Below are positions 9,077-63,483 of a DNA stretch of 64,000 nt, piece after piece. Numbering within the stretch: the stretch's first letter is position 1; each line of letters begins with the position of its first letter. Both the position numbers and the translations under genes were made by a program. The DNA comes from Desulfobacterales bacterium (GTDB taxonomy: Bacteria; Desulfobacterota; Desulfobacteria; Desulfobacterales; JAHEIW01): positions 129 to 64,128 of the forward strand of contig JASFIV010000002.1 in NCBI GenBank assembly GCA_050122475.1, written 5' to 3'. The notes beneath the pieces were generated by a model. That model saw only the letters and a program-made list of their open reading frames with translations. It did not search any database and was not told the origin of the DNA.

Positions 9077-9180
9077 GTAACCCGTTGAGCCCGTTAACCC
9101 GTTTGCCGGTTAAAAGATAAAACCAGACCTTTTCCTCTTTTAACGGGCTTAACCGGCCAACCGGCTCAACCGGATAACCG
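9077..9180. repeat. Low-complexity inverted repeat (AACCCGTT/AACCGG words) between convergent genes
   Basis: Left arm GTAACCCGTTGAGCCCGTTAACCCGTTTGCCGGTTAAAAG pairs imperfectly with right arm CTTTTAACGGGCTTAACCGGCCAACCGGCTCAACCGGATAACC. It probably also acts as a bidirectional terminator. Confidence 0.7.
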
Positions 9181-15440: not shown

Positions 15441-15449
15441 AGTTTAGAT

Positions 15450-15610
15450 AACCTATCCCCAAAATGCGTCTAACATGTTCTGGTTGAGCCCGTTAACCCG
15501 TTTGCCGGTTAATGGCTTTTTTCTTATTATAACAGACTCAGCTGGTTTAGCCGGTACAACAGGCAAGCCTAATCAGGTGAACGAATATTTTGGGTATAGG
15601 GGATACCTTT
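15450..15610. repeat. Family-2 terminal-inverted-repeat element (short copy) carrying the 30-mer shared with 9084-9113
   Basis: Left end CCTATCCCCAAAATGCGTCTAAC. The reverse complement of the right end reads GGTATCCCCTATACCCAAAATATTCG. Internal 15483-15512 is identical to 9084-9113. Confidence 0.6.
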
Positions 15611-15700: not shown

Positions 15701-16423
15701 ATGAGATTGCTGTCAGTGCTGTTGATTCTGGGAGCGCTGTCAAGCTGTATCAATTCAGGATCAAACTCCGGCAATGAACCCTTAATTCGTGTTCGTGATA
15801 GAGTGCTTACGGTGTTGGAGTTCAATGAGACATTTGAATTTATCCAATCGGCTCATCCTCAAAACTTGAAGGATCATCCCGAGGATTTAAGAAATGCTCA
15901 ACGACGCCTTTTAAACCAGCTGACTGTAGAGATGATTATCCTTGAAAGGGCTGAAGAGCTGGGACTTTCTATTTCGGATGAAGAGATCAATAAGGCTGTA
16001 AAAGACATAAAAAGCGATTATCCTGAAGATACATTCGAAAAAACGTTGCTCAAAACGGCTGTTTCATATGAACTATGGGAGGCCCGTTTAAAAAATAGAA
16101 TGCTGATGCAAAAAGTGGTCGATACCGAACTTAAAGATAAAATTGTTATCACACCTGAAGATATCGCTGACTACTATGAACGCAACATAAAAACGCGAGC
16201 TCTGGAATCCGAAACTGCAGGTTCAAAAGATGATATCAATGAAAGGATCATCAAATATCTGCGTCGTGAAAAGGCGGAGAAGGCATATAAAATTTGGATA
16301 AATAATCTTAAGAACAATTACAGCATTGAGATCGACAGTGCACAGTGGGAAAAAATTAGCGGTTCTCCTTATCGTGCTGATCAGAATCTGAATGATCTAG
16401 ATTTGACTCAAAAGCCTGAGTGA
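15701..16423 (+). CDS. SurA N-terminal-domain-like periplasmic chaperone lipoprotein
   Basis: ORF 15629-16423. A lipoprotein-type signal MRLLSVLLILGALSSC starts at ATG 15701, though the start could be 15629 or 15662. The remainder resembles the SurA_N chaperone domain and has no rotamase domain. Confidence 0.65.
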   Translation: MRLLSVLLILGALSSCINSGSNSGNEPLIRVRDRVLTVLEFNETFEFIQSAHPQNLKDHPEDLRNAQRRLLNQLTVEMIILERAEELGLSISDEEINKAVKDIKSDYPEDTFEKTLLKTAVSYELWEARLKNRMLMQKVVDTELKDKIVITPEDIADYYERNIKTRALESETAGSKDDINERIIKYLRREKAEKAYKIWINNLKNNYSIEIDSAQWEKISGSPYRADQNLNDLDLTQKPE

Positions 16424-16435
16424 CATATTTTTAAG

Positions 16436-16522
16436 CCCTATCTCAAAAAATGCATCTAAAACTCTTCCAAGGGCTGTGTTTCCACGATAAATGGGGATCA
16501 CACATCTATGGTTAAGATAGGC
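16436..16522. repeat. Family-2 terminal-inverted-repeat element (minimal copy)
   Basis: Left end CCTATCTCAAAAAATGCATCT. The reverse complement of the right end reads CCTATCTTAACCATAGAT. It starts 13 nt after the upstream stop codon. Confidence 0.55.
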
Positions 16523-16584
16523 GTTAAGTAAAACGGCAAAACAATCAAGAACAAATTGTTAATTTCGATTACGGCCTTAGATAA

Positions 16585-27428: not shown

Positions 27429-27616
27429 GCTTCAGTTGTATCTACTAAAAGGGTAAGACCATCGGTTCAATTGGTTTGGTTCAAATCAACCAATTCAGCC
27501 AATGAAACAAATAATACGAATTTAACAAGTTGTTGTACTTTGGCACCTGCCACCCGACACTTTTACTGTTACCTAATAACTAATAACCAATAACCCCTGC
27601 TAAAATCCTGATCCCC

Positions 27617-31338: not shown

Positions 31339-31430
31339 TTGTTATTGGTTACCAGTTATTGGTTATTTGTTTCGACATTTCGATCATCGGTGCAAAACCA
31401 AATAACGAATAACCATTAATAAATAACTAA
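31339..31430. repeat. Word hairpin (TTATTGG / CCAATAA)
   Basis: TTGTTATTGGTTACCAGTTATTGGTTATTTG faces AACCAAATAACGAATAACCATTAATAAATAAC. Related words TAATAACTAATAACCAATAACC occur at about 27570-27595. Confidence 0.7.
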
Positions 31431-34335: not shown

Positions 34336-34617
34336 ATGGAAAAACAGGCACGTGCCCATGTCATCATATCCGGGCGGGTTCAGGGCGTTTTTTTTCGGGT
34401 GGAGACACAACGCGCCGCGGAACGGTTTGGCGTTTTGGGCTGGGTTCGAAATCGTCCTGACGGCACAGTCGAAGCTGTGTTTGAAGGCAGTCAGGAATCT
34501 GTTGATGCCGTTCTTCAATGGTGTGAAGAAGGACCTAATCTGGCGGTCGTTGAAAATGTGGATCTGAAATGGCAGGATTTCACCGGAGAGTATAAGCGCT
34601 TCGACATCACCTATTAA
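34336..34617 (+). CDS. acyP: Acylphosphatase
   Basis: 93 aa. GRVQGVFFRVETQRAAERFGVLGWVRNRPDGTVEAVFEG is the canonical acylphosphatase signature. Confidence 0.92.
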   Translation: MEKQARAHVIISGRVQGVFFRVETQRAAERFGVLGWVRNRPDGTVEAVFEGSQESVDAVLQWCEEGPNLAVVENVDLKWQDFTGEYKRFDITY

Positions 34618-34810
34618 AGCTATCTTAAAAATGCATCTTACGCCCAATGGCTGCGTTCAAAACCGATTCAAAATGCTCGAATACTAACGTGTATGCTCCA
34701 CTTTTGAATCGGTTTTCGCCTTGCTTTGTTGAACACCTTAATGTTTTAAGATCAGATGTGAAATCCCGCATTCATGCGGGGGACGTAATCTACTATTTTT
34801 TAGATAGCTT
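34617..34810 (+). repeat. Family-2 structured element, long copy A (TIRs plus module-1 hairpin plus module-2 conserved core)
   Basis: Left end AAGCTATCTTAAAAATGCATCTTACG. The reverse complement of the right end reads AAGCTATCTAAAAAATAGTAGATTACG. Module-1 stem is AAAACCGATTCAAAA/CTTTTGAATCGGTTTT. Module-2 is TTGTTGAACACCTTAATGTTTTAAGATCAGATGTGAAATCCCGCATTCATGCGGGG. ORF 34647-34901 inside it is not credible. Confidence 0.8.
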
Positions 34811-34911
34811 TAAGTTCTTTAATTATGAAAAAAGCACCAGCGGGTGGCATTTGAAGTTGTTGCGAAAAAGCCTGCTGGGGTTTTTATCCTTGAGGGTTTG
34901 AACAAACAGAA

Positions 34912-40308: not shown

Positions 40309-40585
40309 ATATCAAGATCTCCTCGGATCAATTTGTCGTACCAGCGTATATTTTGGGGTGCTCTGATTTTTAGTGGTATACCGCTGAAAGTGTCTTAAAA
40401 AAAAGCCACAACTTTGCCGTCCAAGTCATTTTGAGGCAAATTTCGGCTTGCAAGAAGATGGAAAAACGGTTTTGATTTTCACTGGCAAATCATAGCAGGA
40501 TGTGGGGCGCTTGTAAAGGAAAAACACAACTTAAGGTATAATTTTAGTAGTTTGGATACAAGATGTGGTGTTGGCAGCAACAATT

Positions 40586-40635
40586 AAATTCGAAATTCGA
40601 AATTCGAATTTAGAGTTTCGGATTTGGTGCGTGCA
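40586..40635. repeat. Word repeat (AATTCGA)x3 plus TTTCGGATTTGG
   Basis: AAATTCGAAATTCGAAATTCGAATTTAGAGTTTCGGATTTGG. The same words recur at 59020-59170. Confidence 0.7.
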
Positions 40636-47742: not shown

Positions 47743-49086
47743 ATGAATAAATTAAAAAAACGTATGGGTAATCGTGTCGATATGGCCGATTACATGGTTT
47801 TGACCGCCATATTTCTAGGGGCGTTGTACTGGGCTCTGGAATCCCTTCTGAATGTATTTTCGCCGGAGGAAATTAGTTTCTATCAAGAAATCTTCGGGCC
47901 CAATATCAGTGACGTGTGGCCGCGGCTGATCGTATTTTGCCTTTTTTTAATGTTTGGCTCCCACGTACAATTTACCATCAATGAACGCAACCGGGCGCTG
48001 GAAGCATTAAAAGAAAGTGAGGAAAAATACCGAACCATTCTCGAAAATATCGAAGAGGGTTACTATGAAATCGATTTTGAAGGATATTTTATTTTCGGAA
48101 ACGACTCGTTGAGTAAAATTCTCGGCGCTCCCAAAATGGATCTGCGATTCATGAATCTTTGGGAATTTATGGATGAAAAGAATGCCGAATTAATATATGA
48201 AACCTTTTTGGAATGTCGCCGAAGCGGCAGACCTGTTAAAGCCTTTGACTGCGAATTTAATGCTGGGGGGGCAATCTTATTCATTGAAGCTTCGGCTTCT
48301 TTACTACAGGATTCCAAGGGTTTGCCTATCGGATATCGTGGGGTACTGCGGGACCGAACTGAAAAAAAGAAAATGGAAATGGATTTATTGGAATCCTATC
48401 GGAAAGTACATGAAGCCCGCAGTGCAACAATTCTGGGTCTTGCCAAGCTTGCCGAATACCGCGACGAAGGTACCGGCACTCACCTGGAAAGAATTCGGGA
48501 GTATGCCAGAATTCTTGCGGTGCAATTGGCTAAGAATCCCAAGTTTGCTGACCGCATCGATCAGCAATATATTGACGACATCTACCAGTCTTCGATTCTG
48601 CACGATATCGGTAAAGTCGGCACACCGGATGCGCTCTTACTAAAACCCGGGGAATTGACTGAAGATGAGTTTGATATCATCAAGCGCCATACCCTGATGG
48701 GCGGCAATGCCTTAAAGGCAATCGAATCTCAGATTGAGGGTAAATCCTTCCTGGCCATGGGCAAGGAAATTGCCTATAACCATCACGAGAAATGGGACGG
48801 CTCGGGATACCCGCGCGGACTAAAAGGCGAAGCGATCCCTTTATCTGCGCGCATCATTGCGGTAGCTGATGTGTACGATGCCTTAACGACCAAAAGATTT
48901 TACAAAGAAGCCTATTCTCACGAAAAAGCCAAGTCGATGATCATCCGCTTAAAAGGCCAACACTTCGATCCGGAAATTGTTGAGGCCTTTGTTGCCATAG
49001 AGGCAGAATTCAAACGCGTGCGCAGAGAAAAACTCAAGGAGGAGACGGCCTTTACCCAGCAGCGGGTTCAAGCTGTCGGTCATTAA
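47743..49086 (+). CDS. HD-GYP domain phosphodiesterase with N-terminal TM segments and a PAS-like domain
   Basis: The HD-GYP signature is HDIGKVGTP..., HHEKWDGSGYPRGLKG and AVADVYDALTTKR. A PAS-like region (YRTILENIEEGYYEID) precedes it. Confidence 0.9.
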   Translation: MNKLKKRMGNRVDMADYMVLTAIFLGALYWALESLLNVFSPEEISFYQEIFGPNISDVWPRLIVFCLFLMFGSHVQFTINERNRALEALKESEEKYRTILENIEEGYYEIDFEGYFIFGNDSLSKILGAPKMDLRFMNLWEFMDEKNAELIYETFLECRRSGRPVKAFDCEFNAGGAILFIEASASLLQDSKGLPIGYRGVLRDRTEKKKMEMDLLESYRKVHEARSATILGLAKLAEYRDEGTGTHLERIREYARILAVQLAKNPKFADRIDQQYIDDIYQSSILHDIGKVGTPDALLLKPGELTEDEFDIIKRHTLMGGNALKAIESQIEGKSFLAMGKEIAYNHHEKWDGSGYPRGLKGEAIPLSARIIAVADVYDALTTKRFYKEAYSHEKAKSMIIRLKGQHFDPEIVEAFVAIEAEFKRVRREKLKEETAFTQQRVQAVGH

Positions 49087-49393
49087 ATAGTTTCCATTTG
49101 GAAATGGCCCTTTTTCGCTTTGTTTTGATGAACTGTGTTCTCCGCGGGTTTTCCGCCTGCGACATACTCGATGTACGCCTTGCCGGAAACCTTCTGCCCG
49201 CCATCGCGAGCGCTCCATTCGACCCGCTTTCGACTTGAGCTCAGGCCGAAAGTAGCTCATGGCCGAGGGCAGGCGAGGCGGGCGGGCTTGTGCGGATTGT
49301 TGAACACTTTAATTTTCGTAAAACTAGATGTGAAATCCCGTTTGGCGGGGCTCATCAAAAAAAAAGCTCATTTCCAAATTGTAAACGAACTAT
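49087..49393 (+). repeat. Family-2 structured element, long copy C
   Basis: Ends are ATAGTTTCCATTTGGAA and (reverse complement) ATAGTTCGTTTACAATTTGGAA. Module 1 is GGTTTTCCG...CATACTCGATGTACGCC...CGGAAACC. Module 2 is TTGTTGAACACTTTAATTTTCGTAAAACTAGATGTGAAATCCCGTTTGGCGGGG. It starts 1 nt after the HD-GYP gene stop. Confidence 0.75.
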
Positions 49394-49411
49394 TGGTTTC
49401 CATCCACTAAG

Positions 49412-51055: not shown

Positions 51056-52582
51056 ATGGACATTAAAAAACTCAACGAAGGCCTTCTCGGGAGGCTAAAT
51101 CCACGAATTGCGACCTGGCTTTTTAACCGGCTCAAAAATCTGCCGGTGGTCGAGCGAAAGGTAGAGCAAGAATTCGAAGACCTGCTGGACGATCTCGAAG
51201 CGGTCGTTAAGCCCTATCGACGGCAATTTGATACCTATGCCGCTATACCGGACACGGGCCGCGAAGCGTCAGCCATTTTAGAGGAAATGCAGGTCCTGTC
51301 TGATCTGGAGCAGCCCAAATGGAAAGACGGCTATGCCTCCGGGGCCGTCTACCATGGCGATGCAGACCACATTGATTTTTTAAATCAGGTTTATATGTTG
51401 AACTCCCAGAGTAATCCCCTGCACACCGATTTATGGCCCAGCAGCGCCAAATACGAATCAGAGATTGTGTCCATGACCGCCAGGATGCTGGGTGCCGATC
51501 CGCAGGTGGCCGCAGCGGATCCAGATCGGGAAATCTGCGGTGTTGTGACATCCGGCGGCACCGAAAGTATCTTACTGGCGATGAAAACGTATCGGGATTG
51601 GGCCCGCGATCAAAAGAATATCACACGGCCCGAGATCATTATCCCCGTCAGCGCGCATGCAGCCTTTGATAAAGCTGCAGAGTATTTTAAAATCAAAATC
51701 AAACGCATCCCCGTGGACGGCGATTATCGGGCTGATCTGACGGCAGCCCGCAATGCTATCACGCGCCATACCATTGCGCTGATCGGATCGGCGCCTTGCT
51801 TTCCTCACGGCGTGGTGGATCCAATTGCTCAGCTGTCTGAGCTGGCCAGAGAGAAGGGCATCGGGTTTCACACCGATGCTTGCCTAGGGGGCTTTGTTTT
51901 ACCATGGGCCGAACAATTGGGCTATGCGGTTCCATTGTTTGATTTTCGATTACCCGGGGTGACCTCGATCTCGGCTGACACGCATAAATATGGCTATGCG
52001 GCCAAAGGAACCTCCGTCATTTTATATCAGAATCCGACATTGCGCCGCTATCAGTATTTTACAACCAGCGAATGGCCCGGCGGGCTATATTTTTCACCAA
52101 CCTTCGCCGGCAGTCGACCGGGCGCTTTAAGCGCCGCCTGCTGGGCTGCAATGATCAAAATCGGCAAAGACGGTTATTTAGCTGCCACCCAAAAAATATT
52201 GGAAGCCGCTGCCAGAATAAAAAAGGGGATTCAAGATATTCCCGAAGTATACATCCTAGGAGATCCGTTATGGGTCATCGCTTTTGGTTCCAGGACGTTA
52301 GATATTTATCAGGTCATGGATTATCTAACCTCCAGGGGCTGGAGCCTAAACGGCCTCCATCATCCCGCCTGCGTCCACCTGTGCGTAACCTTGCGGCATA
52401 CCCAGCCGGGAGTGACCGAACGATTCATTCATGATTTAAAGGCAGCCGTTGATTATGTGCGTGATAATCCCGATCAATCCGGAACAATGGCGCCCATCTA
52501 CGGCCTATCCGCCAATTTGCCCGTGCGCAGCCTGGTGGGGGATTTGTTGAAGCGGTATATCGACCTGCTCTACAAACTCTAA
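51056..52582 (+). CDS. PLP-dependent group II decarboxylase-fold enzyme, sphingosine-1-phosphate-lyase-like
   Basis: 508 aa. The PLP-lysine region [21 protein letters not shown] matches the S1P-lyase pattern (D-x-HKYG-x-A-x-KG) better than the GAD pattern. It lies 33 nt downstream of the FGGY kinase gene. Confidence 0.8.
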
Positions 52583-52872
52583 AACGGGTCTAAAAAGGAT
52601 CGCCTACTGTCCGAGGGCGGTGTTCTAATCCGGCGCAAAATACTCGCGTACTATCGTGTACGCTCCGTTTTTGCGCCGAATTACGCCTACCTCTCGAACA
52701 GGATTCAACCCTTTTTAGACCCGTTTATATTTTCAATTATGGGTAGTAATTTTACAGACACAAATCAAAAGGGTTTTCGTCTTGCTTTGTTGAACACCGT
52801 AATGTTTTAAAATCAGATGTGAAATCCCGCTTTTAAGCGGGGGGCGTGATCTACTATTTTTGAGATGGGTTT
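52581..52872 (+). repeat. Family-2 structured element, long copy B
   Basis: Left end AAAACGGGTCTAAAAAGG. An internal partner CCCTTTTTAGACCCGTTT closes module 1 (stem AATCCGGCGCAAAA/TTTTTGCGCCGAATT, loop ACTCGCGTACTATCGTGTACGCTCC). Module 2 is TTGTTGAACACCGTAATGTTTTAAAATCAGATGTGAAATCCCGCTTTTAAGCGGGG. The right end is GATCTACTATTTTTGAGATGGGTTT. Confidence 0.8.
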
Positions 52873-52939
52873 ACATTTATTTTACCTAAAAAATTACAAA
52901 AATAATTCAGGACAGAGCCATCATCAAATTCGGAGAAAG

Positions 52940-53118
52940 GCCATGTTTTTTTCTGGTAGGCGATATGCAGAAGGTTTACGCGCAAGCGACCCAGTGACGC
53001 GATATTTGGGATGTTGGGCACCTAAGTCTTAAGGTCGACGACAGATAATGGCCGCGTCCCAAATATCGGGTCACCGGCACCCAAAAAATCATATCGCCGG
53101 TCAGAAATGACATGCCCG
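52940..53118. repeat. Nested-palindrome MITE-like element, family 1, copy 2 (opposite orientation to copy 1)
   Basis: Outer arms are 52942-52977 (CATGTTTTTTTCTGGTAGGCGATATG) and 53090-53114 (CATATCGCCGGTCAGAAATGACATG). Inner arms are GTGACGCGATATTTGGGA and TCCCAAATATCGGGTCAC. It aligns with the reverse complement of 58-238. Confidence 0.75.
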
Positions 53119-53348
53119 TATCCGGTTATGCCTGAAAGTCGCGGCTAATTTTAGCCGGGCTCGCCAAATCAATGACATTACACGAAATTTCATTCAAGTA
53201 TCCCTGCCAAATGGCCGATATATATGCCAGATTTCGGGTTGAAAGCATAGAAGCGTCAAATATAGCTGAGATTCACGGACACCCTTTGCAAAACGCCAAA
53301 GCCATACCAGCGGAACATGAGAGCCATAATTGAGGAATCATTGTTAAG

Positions 53349-56183: not shown

Positions 56184-56247
56184 ATGGCGGCATAAGTGTT
56201 GTAGCAAAAAAAACGCCCCGCAATCGGAACGTTTTTTTGACAACCAC
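56184..56247 (+). repeat. Family-4 A/T-stem hairpin repeat, copy 1 (terminator-like, downstream of the LysM gene)
   Basis: ATGGCGGCATAAGTGTTGTAGCAAAAAAAACGCCCCGCAATCGGAACGTTTTTTTGACAACCAC. It is near-identical to 61156-61217 except in the loop. A second hairpin (AAATCTCCGG...CGGAGATTTT) follows. Confidence 0.7.
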
Positions 56248-56484
56248 AATGAAATCTCCGGTCCCGTTTGTCAGGATCGGAGATTTTCGTTTTGGATTCT
56301 TGGCTTGCGACCGTTCCATGTCAGCGCTGAAGCCATCGGGATGAATGGCTATTCATTTGGTTGCCCAGCCGTTGTCGTCGGCGTTGAAAAGAACCAATTT
56401 TCGATTTGCTAATCTTATATTAACAATATATATATATACTTATATAAAAATTGGGTATTGGATGCCAAGAGATTAAGGTTTTTG

Positions 56485-58969: not shown

Positions 58970-59019
58970 TTATGGGTAAATAGATATTTGCTAATTGTTA
59001 TTATCTCAATTACGCCTAA

Positions 59020-59170
59020 ATCCGAAATTCGAATCTCGAAATTCGAAACAATATCGAATTACCCAAAATTCAAAATCTAAAATATTTGCATTTCCTCATC
59101 AGATCTTTTTGAACATTTGAACATTGGTTATTTGGATTTATTTCGGATTTCGTGCTTAGGATTTAACATT
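59020..59170. repeat. Word-repeat spacer (CGAAATT/AATTCGA and TTTCGGATTT words) inside the beta-oxidation operon
   Basis: AAATCCGAAATTCGAATCTCGAAATTCGAAACAATATCGAATT...TTTGGATTTATTTCGGATTTCGTGCTTAGGATTT. The words are shared with 40586-40635 and 20544-20577. Confidence 0.7.
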
Positions 59171-61155: not shown

Positions 61156-61217
61156 ATGGCGCATAAGTGTTGTAGCAAAAAAACGTTACGCAAGCGGAAC
61201 GTTTTTTTGACAACCAC
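61156..61217 (+). repeat. Family-4 A/T-stem hairpin repeat, copy 2
   Basis: ATGGCGCATAAGTGTTGTAGCAAAAAAACGTTACGCAAGCGGAACGTTTTTTTGACAACCAC, in the same orientation as 56184-56247. Confidence 0.7.
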
Positions 61218-61280
61218 TATAAGTCGGCCATAAAAGGATTATCTTTCTGTAATTTACAGGTTGCGCTTAAAACGGTTACA

Positions 61281-63439: not shown

Positions 63440-63459
63440 AGATGCATTTTTGAGATCGG
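63440..63459 (-). repeat. Solo family-2 end motif (reverse orientation) just upstream of hisD
   Basis: AGATGCATTTTTGAGATCGG is the reverse complement of CCGATCTCAAAAATGCATCT, the family-2 left-end consensus. A nearby CCCAATGGC (on the reverse complement) also matches copy A. Confidence 0.5.
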
Positions 63460-63483
63460 TTCTAATAAGGGAAGGAAAAGCCC

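Follow-up and report, generated by a model that had tools for sequence, protein, structure and literature searches.

What kind of element is repeated along a 64,000-nucleotide stretch of a Desulfobacterales genome (contig JASFIV010000002.1; hereafter the window), and which of its strands is structured? Small interspersed repeats are known in many bacteria, and their enzymes and functions are mostly unsolved. An earlier note on the window had described three long copies (A, B and C) with inverted-repeat ends and proposed either a structured RNA or a mobile element. We find that copies A, B and C belong to a hitherto undescribed superfamily of small, non-coding, hairpin-forming repeats that extends across the Desulfobacterales. 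On balance, we favor reading them as new non-autonomous elements resembling MITEs and REPINs, with unusual targeting to or retention at stop codons.

The sequences of the three long copies, all in the plus orientation, were confirmed at approximately 34615-34812 (A), 49087-49394 (C) and 52580-52873 (B). They share a core, as had been stated: A and B align over 102 nt at 89% identity, and the core of a second module (module 2) recurs in all three. Copy A (34615..34812; structured strand, minus) is a full element with TA...TA ends and the terminal repeat TTAAAGCTATCT.AAAAA at both ends. The stop codon TAA (34615-34617) of an acylphosphatase gene supplies the left TA and the first A of this copy. 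The inner stem (P2) and conserved tip, together called module 1, occupy 34658..34716 on the minus strand, with the arms caaaaccgattcaaaa / ttttgaatcggtttt and the tip TGCTCGAATACTAACGTGTATGCTCC, and are supported by two alignments (A1 and A2) and by covariation. Module 2 of copy A, an optional cassette (34729..34782), consists of TTGAACAC-N17-AGATGTGAAATCC followed by a hairpin, CCCGC/GCGGG. A covariance model matches copy A at 34634-34732 (99.6 bits; nhmmer E = 3.5e-30).

Copy C (49087..49394, minus strand) belongs to a divergent subfamily with its own terminal repeats (GTTTCCATTTGGAAATG...) and abuts an HD-domain gene, starting directly after its TAA stop (49084-49086). The copy contains an additional G+C-rich insert of about 100 nt and a single module 2 (49300-49353), and its element also occurs at loci L001 and L002. 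What had been taken for a single copy B is a composite. B1 (52580..52727, minus strand) is a complete 148-bp element with module 1 only and its own inverted ends; its first bases are the TAA stop codon of a PLP-decarboxylase gene (51056-52582), and the covariance model matches it at 52601-52699 (98.8 bits; nhmmer E = 2e-31). B2 (52772..52873) is 5′-truncated but still has the junction, a module 2 at 52790-52843 and, on the right, a terminal repeat that finishes in GAGATGGGTTTA. It is the part of B that aligns with copy A (34711-34812), and it is shortened further at locus L102.

The short and solo copies were also recovered, which brings the density to about seven copies or fragments in the window. 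An old remnant (15447..15606) lies 10 nt past the stop codon of Mfd; it retains terminal repeats, its interior has been swapped for an unrelated repeat unit, and the orthologous sites are occupied at loci L105-L108. A short, internally deleted element (16431..16527; nhmmer E = 0.033) follows the TGA stop (16421-16423) of a SurA-like gene and has terminal repeats and the junction without the module-1 stem. At 63440..63464 there is a solo terminal repeat, a left end in minus-strand orientation (TAGAACCGATCTCAAAAATGCATCT), followed by degenerate sequence. Five copies begin 0-13 nt after a stop codon, as previously counted. The end motif that was thought to be common to all copies, CTATCTYAAAAATGCATCT, is found only in A and the short or solo copies; the terminal repeats of B and C differ and hold the equivalent position.

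Spurious gene calls are caused by the repeats: the public contig has a 79-aa “gene” within copy C, and copy A contains an 84-aa ORF. ORFs within the elements are not conserved, since other copies lack the ATG of this 84-aa ORF. A small ORF in module 1 with the start ATGGCTG was likewise dismissed, its ATG not being conserved.

The earlier description separated a hairpin, a second module and the ends. The core is instead a rod-like unit of about 145 nt that forms one long imperfect hairpin in its entirety. Moving inward from the outer stem, one meets an asymmetric internal loop, which is conserved, then the middle stem, an inner stem that is variable and finally the conserved tip; the outer stem is what duplex DNA shows as the terminal inverted repeat, and module 1 is the inner stem plus tip. 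The terminal inverted repeats measure 17-45 bp and form several families by sequence, with complementarity kept inside each family. Elements end in (C)TAAAAC...GTTTTA(C), TAGAAC...GTTCTA, or TAGAAGTGG...CCACTTCTA. The foot of the palindrome has GTAG in two subfamilies (ATAGTAGATC, GGGTAGCT) and TTAGAT or TCAGAT in others, and in the minus-sense alignment most 145-nt copies have a GUUUUA tract just past the closing stem. Among the metagenome matches listed, 51 of 72 elements are 140-149 bp long.

In the larger elements, of 200-300 bp, module 2 (52-56 nt), an optional cassette, is present one to three times at a fixed position. Between the orthologous copies L055 and L056 this module is a clean 52-nt indel; it occurs in tandem at loci L037, L043 and L078. 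Its hairpin, CCCG/CGGG with variable loops, is as first reported. Nested, composite and truncated copies of the elements occur. Module 2 was unconvincing as a sigma-70 promoter (TTGAAC-N17-nnAGAT), having a poor -10 box and variants that drift, and part of its apparent promoter-like conservation was imposed by the search pattern used. BOX elements of Streptococcus pneumoniae have two mutually pairing end modules and variable tandem boxB units that fold alone (PMC3049150). The repeats described here have a similarly modular build, in which the ends and module 1 are joined by zero to three modules 2. To our knowledge, no certain transposase is known for BOX elements. The sequences and hosts are unrelated, however, and PMC3049150 describes neither stop-codon targeting nor a structure bias toward the antisense strand.

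Copies of 145-300 bp are dispersed over unrelated loci. A scan of a genome collection gave at least 97 loci and a metagenome scan at least 120, both counts being lower bounds; a complete Desulfobacterales genome, CP070694.1 (5.3 Mb), is among those with matches. Among the genome matches listed, nearly all are in Desulfobacterales MAGs, with many per MAG, and several lie within about 200 nt of the end of the stored locus or contig. Viral contigs scanned with the module-2 pattern gave no matches. The genes upstream of the elements are syntenic housekeeping genes, and the elements are single or clustered. At the gathering threshold, Rfam 15 matched only a tRNA-Thr in the whole window, and in E-value mode it gave only weak, unrelated matches to copies A and B on both strands; the statement that the core belongs to no known RNA family holds for this release. 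We found no description of such a family in the literature on Desulfobacter MITEs and stop-codon-targeting MITEs. Chunjie of Geobacter, with 9-bp direct repeats, is different.

The occurrence of both filled and empty orthologous sites shows that the elements are mobile, or once were. Four relatives have no element at the site of copy C and a spacer of 19-30 nt there (loci L100-L104). Copies orthologous to B1 at L100, L102 and L104 carry compensatory changes, and the copy is absent at L103. The site after the SurA-like gene has an element at L105 and L107 and none at L108. In a sister strain (L110), the site of copy A is taken by another repeat family on the very same stop-codon TA. Comparison of L038 with L041 and L108 gave no alignment past the junction. 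Together with the hundreds of copies at unrelated loci and the nested and composite copies, the filled and empty sites fit the proposal of a REPIN- or MITE-like mobile element. TA is present at the left end of 59 of 72 copies and at the right end of 45 of 72, and because TA is a palindrome it cannot be told from the end of the repeat itself. Copy C is flanked by an ambiguous 8-11-bp direct repeat in the only filled-versus-empty comparison, where L100 resembles a secondary deletion. No clean target-site duplication was established.

Orthologous copies at L005, L047, L083 and L084 have stems that differ yet remain self-complementary, and loops that are near-identical. Between species whose proteins are 75-90% identical, orthologous loci keep their loops and junctions. 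This conservation looks like selection at the level of the locus (the host) and not like that of a purely selfish repeat.

The alignments agree with the first reading of module 1, in which the stems differ between copies, remain complementary and enclose a conserved tip. In module 1, 86.9% of the cells are paired versus 71.1% in shuffles, with 115 versus 33 double-change cells; over the whole hairpin in the minus sense (56 pairs, compensatory changes in 40), 94.0% of the cells are paired versus 75.9% in shuffles and 31-44% in slid controls, with 198 double-change cells versus 57 in shuffles and 16-56 in slid controls, and since the copies are related by descent all of these cell counts overstate the number of independent events. 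Covariation had been taken to imply selection on structure; it shows that pairing is selected along the entire hairpin (about 70 bp).

The earlier note had read the plus strand, and pairing is better on the minus strand. In the plus sense, just 84.7% of the cells in the same 56 pairs are paired. RNAalifold gives -77.1 kcal/mol for the minus strand versus -36.5 kcal/mol for the plus strand, and the consensus fold energies in an independent metagenome set are -72.0 (minus) versus -39.1 (plus). Of the two strands, the minus strand has the lower minimum free energy in 29 of 29 elements and, in the metagenome set, in 51 of 52. Non-Watson-Crick cells read as G·U on the minus sense (107 versus 10; 284 versus 33 in the independent metagenome set), and at three to four pairs most copies have G·U. 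On the sense strand the conserved non-Watson-Crick positions are C·A mismatches, two of which are adjacent and break the middle stem in most copies. Mutation bias is an unlikely cause of the G·U asymmetry, which is about 10:1 in the inner stems and slight in the terminal 45 nt (121 versus 96, a first, cruder count over the same elements). These comparisons show that selection acts on the strand antisense to the upstream gene.

Of 46 copies, 34 have the left end of the element at a co-oriented ORF's stop and 0 have the right end there; in a metagenome replicate the counts are 51 of 72 and 8 of 72 (both samples being among the matches listed, and both counts resting on crude ORF calls). Stop-codon occupancy in the two independent samples is 71-74% for the left end and 0-11% for the right end, against a background in which stop-codon TAs make up 5.3% of the TA sites outside ORF interiors. 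In most copies the left end sits on the stop codon, so that the TA (rarely TG) of the codon plus the first A or G of the element makes the stop. About a quarter of the copies are not beside a stop codon, and TGA stops are used too. In a young, near-identical subfamily of one MAG (L007, L018, L066 and L078), only about 1 in 4 is at a stop codon. On this count, retention over a long time may contribute as much as targeting to the stop-codon position. This orientation-locked link to stop codons, the most unusual property of the repeats, had escaped the earlier note, as had the composite nature of B and the cassette nature of module 2.

No transposase is encoded among the window ORFs checked, in agreement with the first reading. 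All-against-all BLASTP of 818 ORFs (about 700 kb around elements) gave no recurrent transposase-like ORF, only ABC-ATPase and similar paralogues, and Pfam returned only housekeeping genes for the ORFs between inverted element pairs and the unassigned window ORFs. Genes for RAYT (Y1 HUH), TnpA or TnpB were not found in the window or the fetched loci checked. As for an autonomous parent, no pair of terminal repeats 0.5-5 kb apart was found in any of the fetched loci.

The explanation that we put first, and hold to be somewhat more likely than not, is a lineage-wide superfamily of small, non-coding, non-autonomous mobile elements. The element would be moved in trans by a low-copy enzyme encoded elsewhere, as in REPIN/RAYT or Correia elements. 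This enzyme may recognize, or act through, the folded single-stranded bottom strand, which would be DNA or, less likely, antisense RNA. Insertion, retention or both would strongly favor stop codons in one polarity, and many copies would be old and maintained at the same site across species. A more novel reading, to which we give a rather low probability, is a new class of mobile or domesticated hairpin whose single-stranded bottom strand (DNA or RNA) directs insertion specifically at stop codons in one polarity, or which stays at stop codons because the 3′ end of the gene benefits from the antisense structure. In both cases no described bacterial repeat would be its counterpart.

The repeats share with MITEs a small size, a lack of coding capacity, many copies, terminal inverted repeats and insertion polymorphism between relatives; a parent insertion sequence with the same ends was not found in the fetched loci (about 700 kb). 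REPINs are high-copy, non-coding hairpin doublets with compensatory changes across the hairpin (PMC3116915). The repeats here are like REPINs in their compensatory hairpin, extragenic sites at the 3′ ends of genes and long persistence at orthologous sites, and probably also in action as single-stranded DNA and a single-copy enzyme encoded elsewhere. They differ in that one hairpin of about 145 nt, in which several internal loops are conserved, takes the place of two 20-40-nt REPs, no GTAG/CGTC tag is general across subfamilies, the ends have TA flanks and no RAYT gene was found. We know of no description of a nucleotide-precise, one-polarity stop-codon association for REPINs. PATEs, which derive from IS200/IS605, have differing subterminal hairpins and no inverted termini, and insert 3′ of a 4-5-nt target on one strand. 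The present elements do not have ends of the PATE type because their ends are inverted repeats; their strict polarity (left:right 34:0 and 51:8) and single-strand signature do resemble strand-specific insertion.

We think it unlikely that the repeats are a family of structured RNAs with a function, whether antisense or stand-alone, that became domesticated or had never been selfish, with a rod of about 145 nt made from the minus strand of each copy. The 3′ end of such an RNA would run into the 3′ end of the convergent gene, and the RNA could be a scaffold with a gene-specific antisense tail, a terminator protecting the gene against antisense transcription, or a protein-binding RNA. The conserved G·U pairs and the far better fold on the minus sense point this way, although folded single-stranded DNA would tolerate G·T wobbles too. 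Orthologous loci combine co-varying stems with a tip and internal loops that hardly change; this, the constant 145-nt length and the GUUUUA tract are also consistent with an RNA. The very high density of copies is not, nor are the differences in presence and absence by site and the truncated, nested and composite copies. A simple scan found no promoter within copy A; the right flanks are A+T-rich with ATAAT boxes at about the chance rate, and no conserved promoter was found in or beside the element.

Cut-and-paste MITEs of an IS630/Tc1-type DDE transposase, which duplicates a TA target, are an unlikely source of the pattern; the hairpin would then be a by-product of long inverted repeats and the stop position a residue of purifying selection. 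Correia elements (CREE/NEMIS) of Neisseria and RUP of pneumococcus are, like the repeats here, TA-flanked MITEs of 100-160 bp with inverted ends and hundreds of copies, and we know of no cognate transposase for Correia elements. RUP with IS630-Spn1 is a precedent for a DDE-driven family (PMC2229807), TA is present on both sides of most of our copies with flanking bases that fit Y-TA-R, and the different repeat family on the stop-codon TA at L110 suggests that such TAs are permissive or hot. However, 27 of 72 copies have no TA on the right and some of the stops are TGA, compensatory change spans the whole interior beyond the ends, and the G·U strand asymmetry is unexpected for a double-stranded substrate. 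A symmetric reaction cannot give the observed left:right polarity, random tolerated TA sites predict about 5% at stops where about 72% is seen, and no insertion sequence with matching ends was found in the fetched loci. Correia RNA hairpins are substrates of RNase III (PMC10969869). Correia elements differ in having promoters and an IHF site, neither of which is seen here, and no interior covariation or polarity toward stop codons is reported for them.

The suggestion of a 3′-UTR stabilizer on the sense strand fares worse, as it is the other strand that carries the fold and the conserved G·U pairs. A cis-acting 3′-UTR element of the upstream mRNA, whether stabilizer, terminator or translation-coupled switch, would account for the position at the stop of a co-oriented gene and for a plus strand that is still largely paired, and the outer stem would be opened by the ribosome as it terminates, in the way suggested for ERIC (PMC2229807). 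With conserved C·A mismatches that break the middle stem, a consensus fold energy half that of the antisense strand and a quarter of the copies away from any stop codon, we regard it as decidedly improbable. The 127-bp ERIC/IRU repeats have an orientation-dependent effect on the upstream mRNA that involves the terminating ribosome, and are often transcribed together with the upstream gene (PMC2229807, PMC10969869). They are of similar size to the present repeats, form an imperfect palindrome that pairs the 5′ with the 3′ end, and have TA-associated insertion. The published descriptions set them apart, with no sequence kinship apparent and hosts of another phylum; ERICs also occur in both orientations, and neither a strand-specific G·U pattern nor stop-codon occupancy of about 70% is reported for them.

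Membership among attC-like recombination sites of an integron-type tyrosine recombinase was rejected on consensus sequence and genomic context and is most improbable, for although attC sites behave alike (an imperfect palindrome folding on the bottom strand, structure conserved above sequence, a start at or over the stop of the preceding ORF, fixed polarity), the repeats here have ends that do not fit the R- and L-box consensus RYYYAAC/GTTRRRY, stems much longer than those boxes, no cassette arrays and no integrase gene seen nearby, and they come and go beside conserved, syntenic housekeeping genes.

Filled and empty element sites are usable as strain markers. The repeats combine three properties: a compensatory hairpin of about 70 bp, a clear strand signature, and about 72% stop-codon occupancy versus about 5% expected. 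Such polarity needs either a strand- and site-specific insertion mechanism or a function at the 3′ ends of genes, and both are testable in cultured Desulfobacterales.

The repeats at 34615-34812 (copy A), 49087-49394 (copy C) and 52580-52873 (copy B) are best explained, with moderate confidence, as belonging to a new MITE/REPIN-like superfamily of non-autonomous mobile elements that form hairpins. Direct reading of the three regions and a repeat finder agree with the earlier note that they are copies of one repeat: the 102 nt of 34711-34812 match those of 52772-52873 at 89% identity, and the conserved blocks of module 2 (TTGTTGAACAC... and AGATGTGAAATCCCG) occur at 34726, 49297 and 52787. Copy B had been described as a single element but consists of two: B1 (52580-52727), which is complete at 148 bp and has inverted ends of its own, and a 5′-truncated element that keeps module 2 and a right end (52772-52873). 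The end motif CTATCTYAAAAATGCATCT, thought to be common to all copies, is confined to one subfamily (A, the short copies at 15447 and 16431, and a solo end at 63440-63464), and B1 and C have other termini. There are seven copies or fragments in the 64-kb window, which belongs to a Desulfobacterales MAG and is in part identical to JGI contig Ga0373588_0000097.

The genes around these copies are ordinary. Copy A has genes for LigA and an acylphosphatase upstream and for HU (on the minus strand) and FtsY downstream. Copy C separates the gene of an HD-domain protein from that of an FGGY kinase, after which comes a PLP decarboxylase gene; this same decarboxylase gene is on one side of B, with a protein kinase on the other. 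The short copies are 3′ of Mfd and a SurA-like gene. Public gene calls include a 79-amino acid “gene” inside copy C (49171-49410), and an 84-amino acid ORF (34647-34901) starts in copy A and runs beyond it; both are most likely repeat artefacts.

Across the aligned copies the element forms a single continuous rod-like hairpin of 56 pairs. From the outside inward, the outer stem leads to a conserved loop that is small and asymmetric, then to the middle stem, a clamp of three pairs, an inner stem that varies and has 14-16 pairs (the module-1 stem of the earlier note), and finally a short helix at the tip, GUAC/GUAC, with six bases in its loop. The bounding inverted repeats are 17-45 bp long and fall into several sequence families (TAGAACCYATCTCAAAAA, TAGAAGTGGTTTCAAAAC, TAAAACYGG..., GTGTCCGTCCAGAAAGGG, and GTTTCCATTTGGAAATG), each complementary to its own partner. 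The commonest form lacks module 2, and its length varies strikingly little (140-149 bp in 51 of 72 metagenome copies). Module 2 is an accessory cassette: between CGCCTT and GCCCTC, one of the orthologous copies L055 and L056 has 52 nt, corresponding to the module, that are cleanly missing from the other. The module is in tandem at three loci (L037, L043, L078), is present as an additional inverted copy near the left end of some elements (L019, L048), and occurs without module 1 in others (L018). This modular build, a core plus an accessory module, resembles that of pneumococcal BOX elements, in which boxA and boxC are combined with a variable number of boxB units (PMC3049150).

Further copies, which the earlier note had proposed to look for in other genomes, are numerous. 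At least 97 stretches of the genome collection carry the exact module-2 pattern, and at least 120 metagenome stretches carry that of the module-1 tip, which is independent of module 2. Among the matches listed, nearly all with module 2 are from Desulfobacterales, Desulfobacteraceae, or “Deltaproteobacteria” MAGs, with many per MAG. Two Segatella matches without hairpin or repeat context look like chance, one 1-kb contig with the pattern is labelled Bacteroidota, and no viral contig was found to contain it. Several matches are about 200 nt or less from where the stored locus or contig ends (L030, L034, L050, L071, L092, L127, L141, L168, and others). Rfam identified a single tRNA within the window and no family at the elements, whichever strand was searched, in line with the earlier view that this is not a known RNA family. 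The module-2 core (T/C)AGATGTGAAATCCC (34753-34767, 49325-49339, 52814-52828) matches a stretch of bacterial 16S rRNA (...GTCAGATGTGAAATCCCCGGGC... in E. coli), probably by coincidence.

The module-1 stems had been proposed to covary. In 32 copies, 86.9% of cells are paired (71.1% in shuffles, 17-44% in slid controls), 115 are double-change cells (33 and 10-28), and 14 of 22 pairs have a compensatory change (9.7 and 4-9). For the whole 145-nt element (19 copies, minus sense), the values are 94.0% paired (75.9% in shuffles, 31-44% in slid controls), 198 double-change cells (57 and 16-56), and 40 of 56 pairs with a compensatory change (25.9 and 11-27). For every measure, in both alignments, the observed value exceeded that of all shuffles; the proposal is therefore right, and the covariation extends to the terminal repeats. 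In both alignments the copies are related, so cells do not count as independent events, and the tested structure was itself derived from the aligned sequences.

Orthologous sites differ in occupancy. In four relatives (75-92% protein identity) the C site has no element, and its spacer measures 19-30 nt, vs 325 nt in the window. The closest relative, L100, keeps 12 nt identical to the left end of C, and a deletion between GTTTCCAT repeats probably removed the copy. L100, L102, and L104 carry B1 at the same stop codon, and L103 lacks it; in L104 B1 has both-sided changes at two outer-stem positions and one inner-stem position. The Mfd and SurA-like sites are occupied in relatives (78-87% identity), and L108 has no element at the site after the SurA-like gene. 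Other orthologous copies (L005, L047, L083, L084) have stems that differ yet remain self-complementary and loops that are almost identical. These sites show that copies come and go, and that many are nonetheless old, with conserved unpaired motifs.

The window also has other repeats. A second inverted-repeat family (ends like CGGGCATGTCATTTCTGACCGGCGATATG; 71-236 and 52890-53140) has a copy just downstream of B that is missing from the otherwise orthologous L100, and its ends are joined to module 2 at six loci in other genomes (L023, L036, L049, L057, L061, L082). An exact 30-nt repeat, GTTGAGCCCGTTAACCCGTTTGCCGGTTAA, is at 9084-9113 and 15483-15512, with CCGGYTNAAC-like units nearby and at 9140-9180; one copy is the interior filling of the degenerate element after Mfd, and similar CCCGTT-rich stretches flank elements in L035, L042, L081, and L089. 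A terminator-like palindrome, AAAAAAACG..CGCAA.CGGAACGTTTTTTTGACAACCAC, is repeated at 56184-56250 and 61176-61231, direct and inverted, and near-identical units adjoin elements in L068 and L070. AAATTCG heptamers form palindromic short tandem arrays at 40585-40628 and 59017-59046.

Most elements have a preferred position and polarity relative to genes. With ends taken from the inverted repeats, the left end is at a stop codon (-8 to +12 nt from the stop of a co-oriented ORF with 80 codons or more) in 34 of 46 module-1 elements, and the right end is at the stop of a convergent ORF in none of the 46. In most of these 34, the stop consists of a flanking TA and the element's initial A or G. An independent metagenome sample gave 51/72 (71%) for the left end (TAA 29, TAG 18, TGA 4) and 8/72 for the right; as a null, stop codons at the same loci account for only 5.3% of TA dinucleotides outside ORF interiors. 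By crude ORF calls, the upstream gene is co-oriented for 70 of 92 module-2 instances. The protein end is unchanged in orthologues without the element, which makes the native stop codon the site itself. Of the copies with module 2, about half are at stops. The fraction is about one in four in a subfamily from one MAG whose members are near-identical and probably young, and so part of the pattern may come from retention over time. In the sister strain L110 the acylphosphatase stop codon held by copy A is occupied by a third family of TTATTGGTTA-type units (L110 1780-1925), whose two window arms (27570-27594 and 31341-31365) are 3.7 kb apart and flank genes of raised G+C (0.53-0.55). TA is present at the left end of 59 and the right end of 45 of the 72 metagenome copies, among which no clear target duplication was found. 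In copies lacking the right TA, the first base of the flank is usually a purine, as though TA and R were the two parts of a split stop codon.

The two strands fold differently. The same 56 pairs are formed in 84.7% of cells in plus sense and 94.0% in minus sense, and RNAalifold consensus energies are -36.5 and -77.1 kcal/mol for 19 genome copies and -39.1 and -72.0 kcal/mol for 52 metagenome copies. There are 10 G·U-type cells in plus and 107 in minus sense in the inner stem (33 and 284 in an independent set). The aligned copies in minus sense have a majority U·G or G·U at three or four positions, including two adjacent middle-stem pairs that become C·A mismatches on the plus strand. Single-sequence folding energy is lower on the minus strand for 29/29 and 51/52 elements. 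A cruder first count, in the terminal 45 nt of the same elements, had little asymmetry (121 vs 96), which argues against a simple mutational bias. These tests favour the minus sense: the single strand under selection, RNA or DNA, is the one antisense to the upstream gene, a point not foreseen in the earlier note.

As RNA, this strand could be the product of a family of antisense RNA genes, a possible alternative; the one promoter or terminator signal found was a short U-tract 3′ of the closing stem in the commonest subfamily. The earlier suggestion of a REPIN/MITE-like mobile element is supported by filled and empty orthologous sites and dispersed copies. Neither the polarity nor the strand signature is explained by a MITE of the symmetric cut-and-paste type. 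No parent insertion sequence was found at the element loci, and no recurrent transposase-like ORF there or among the window ORFs. A sense-strand 3′-UTR element, also suggested earlier, is contradicted by the fold and the G·U pairs of the minus sense.

The behaviour of the elements is strikingly similar to that of attC sites; membership fails on consensus sequence and genomic context. No published description of this hairpin repeat family was found in the literature searched. By their descriptions, ERIC, Correia, BOX, RUP, and REPIN elements (PMC2229807, PMC3049150, PMC3116915, PMC10969869) differ in host lineage, and compared with them the family here is new in its elaborate co-varying rod, clear strand call, and stop-codon address. 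As mobile hairpin elements, these repeats would be active or selected as a folded single strand, the bottom strand, and would be inserted or retained at stop codons with a fixed polarity.
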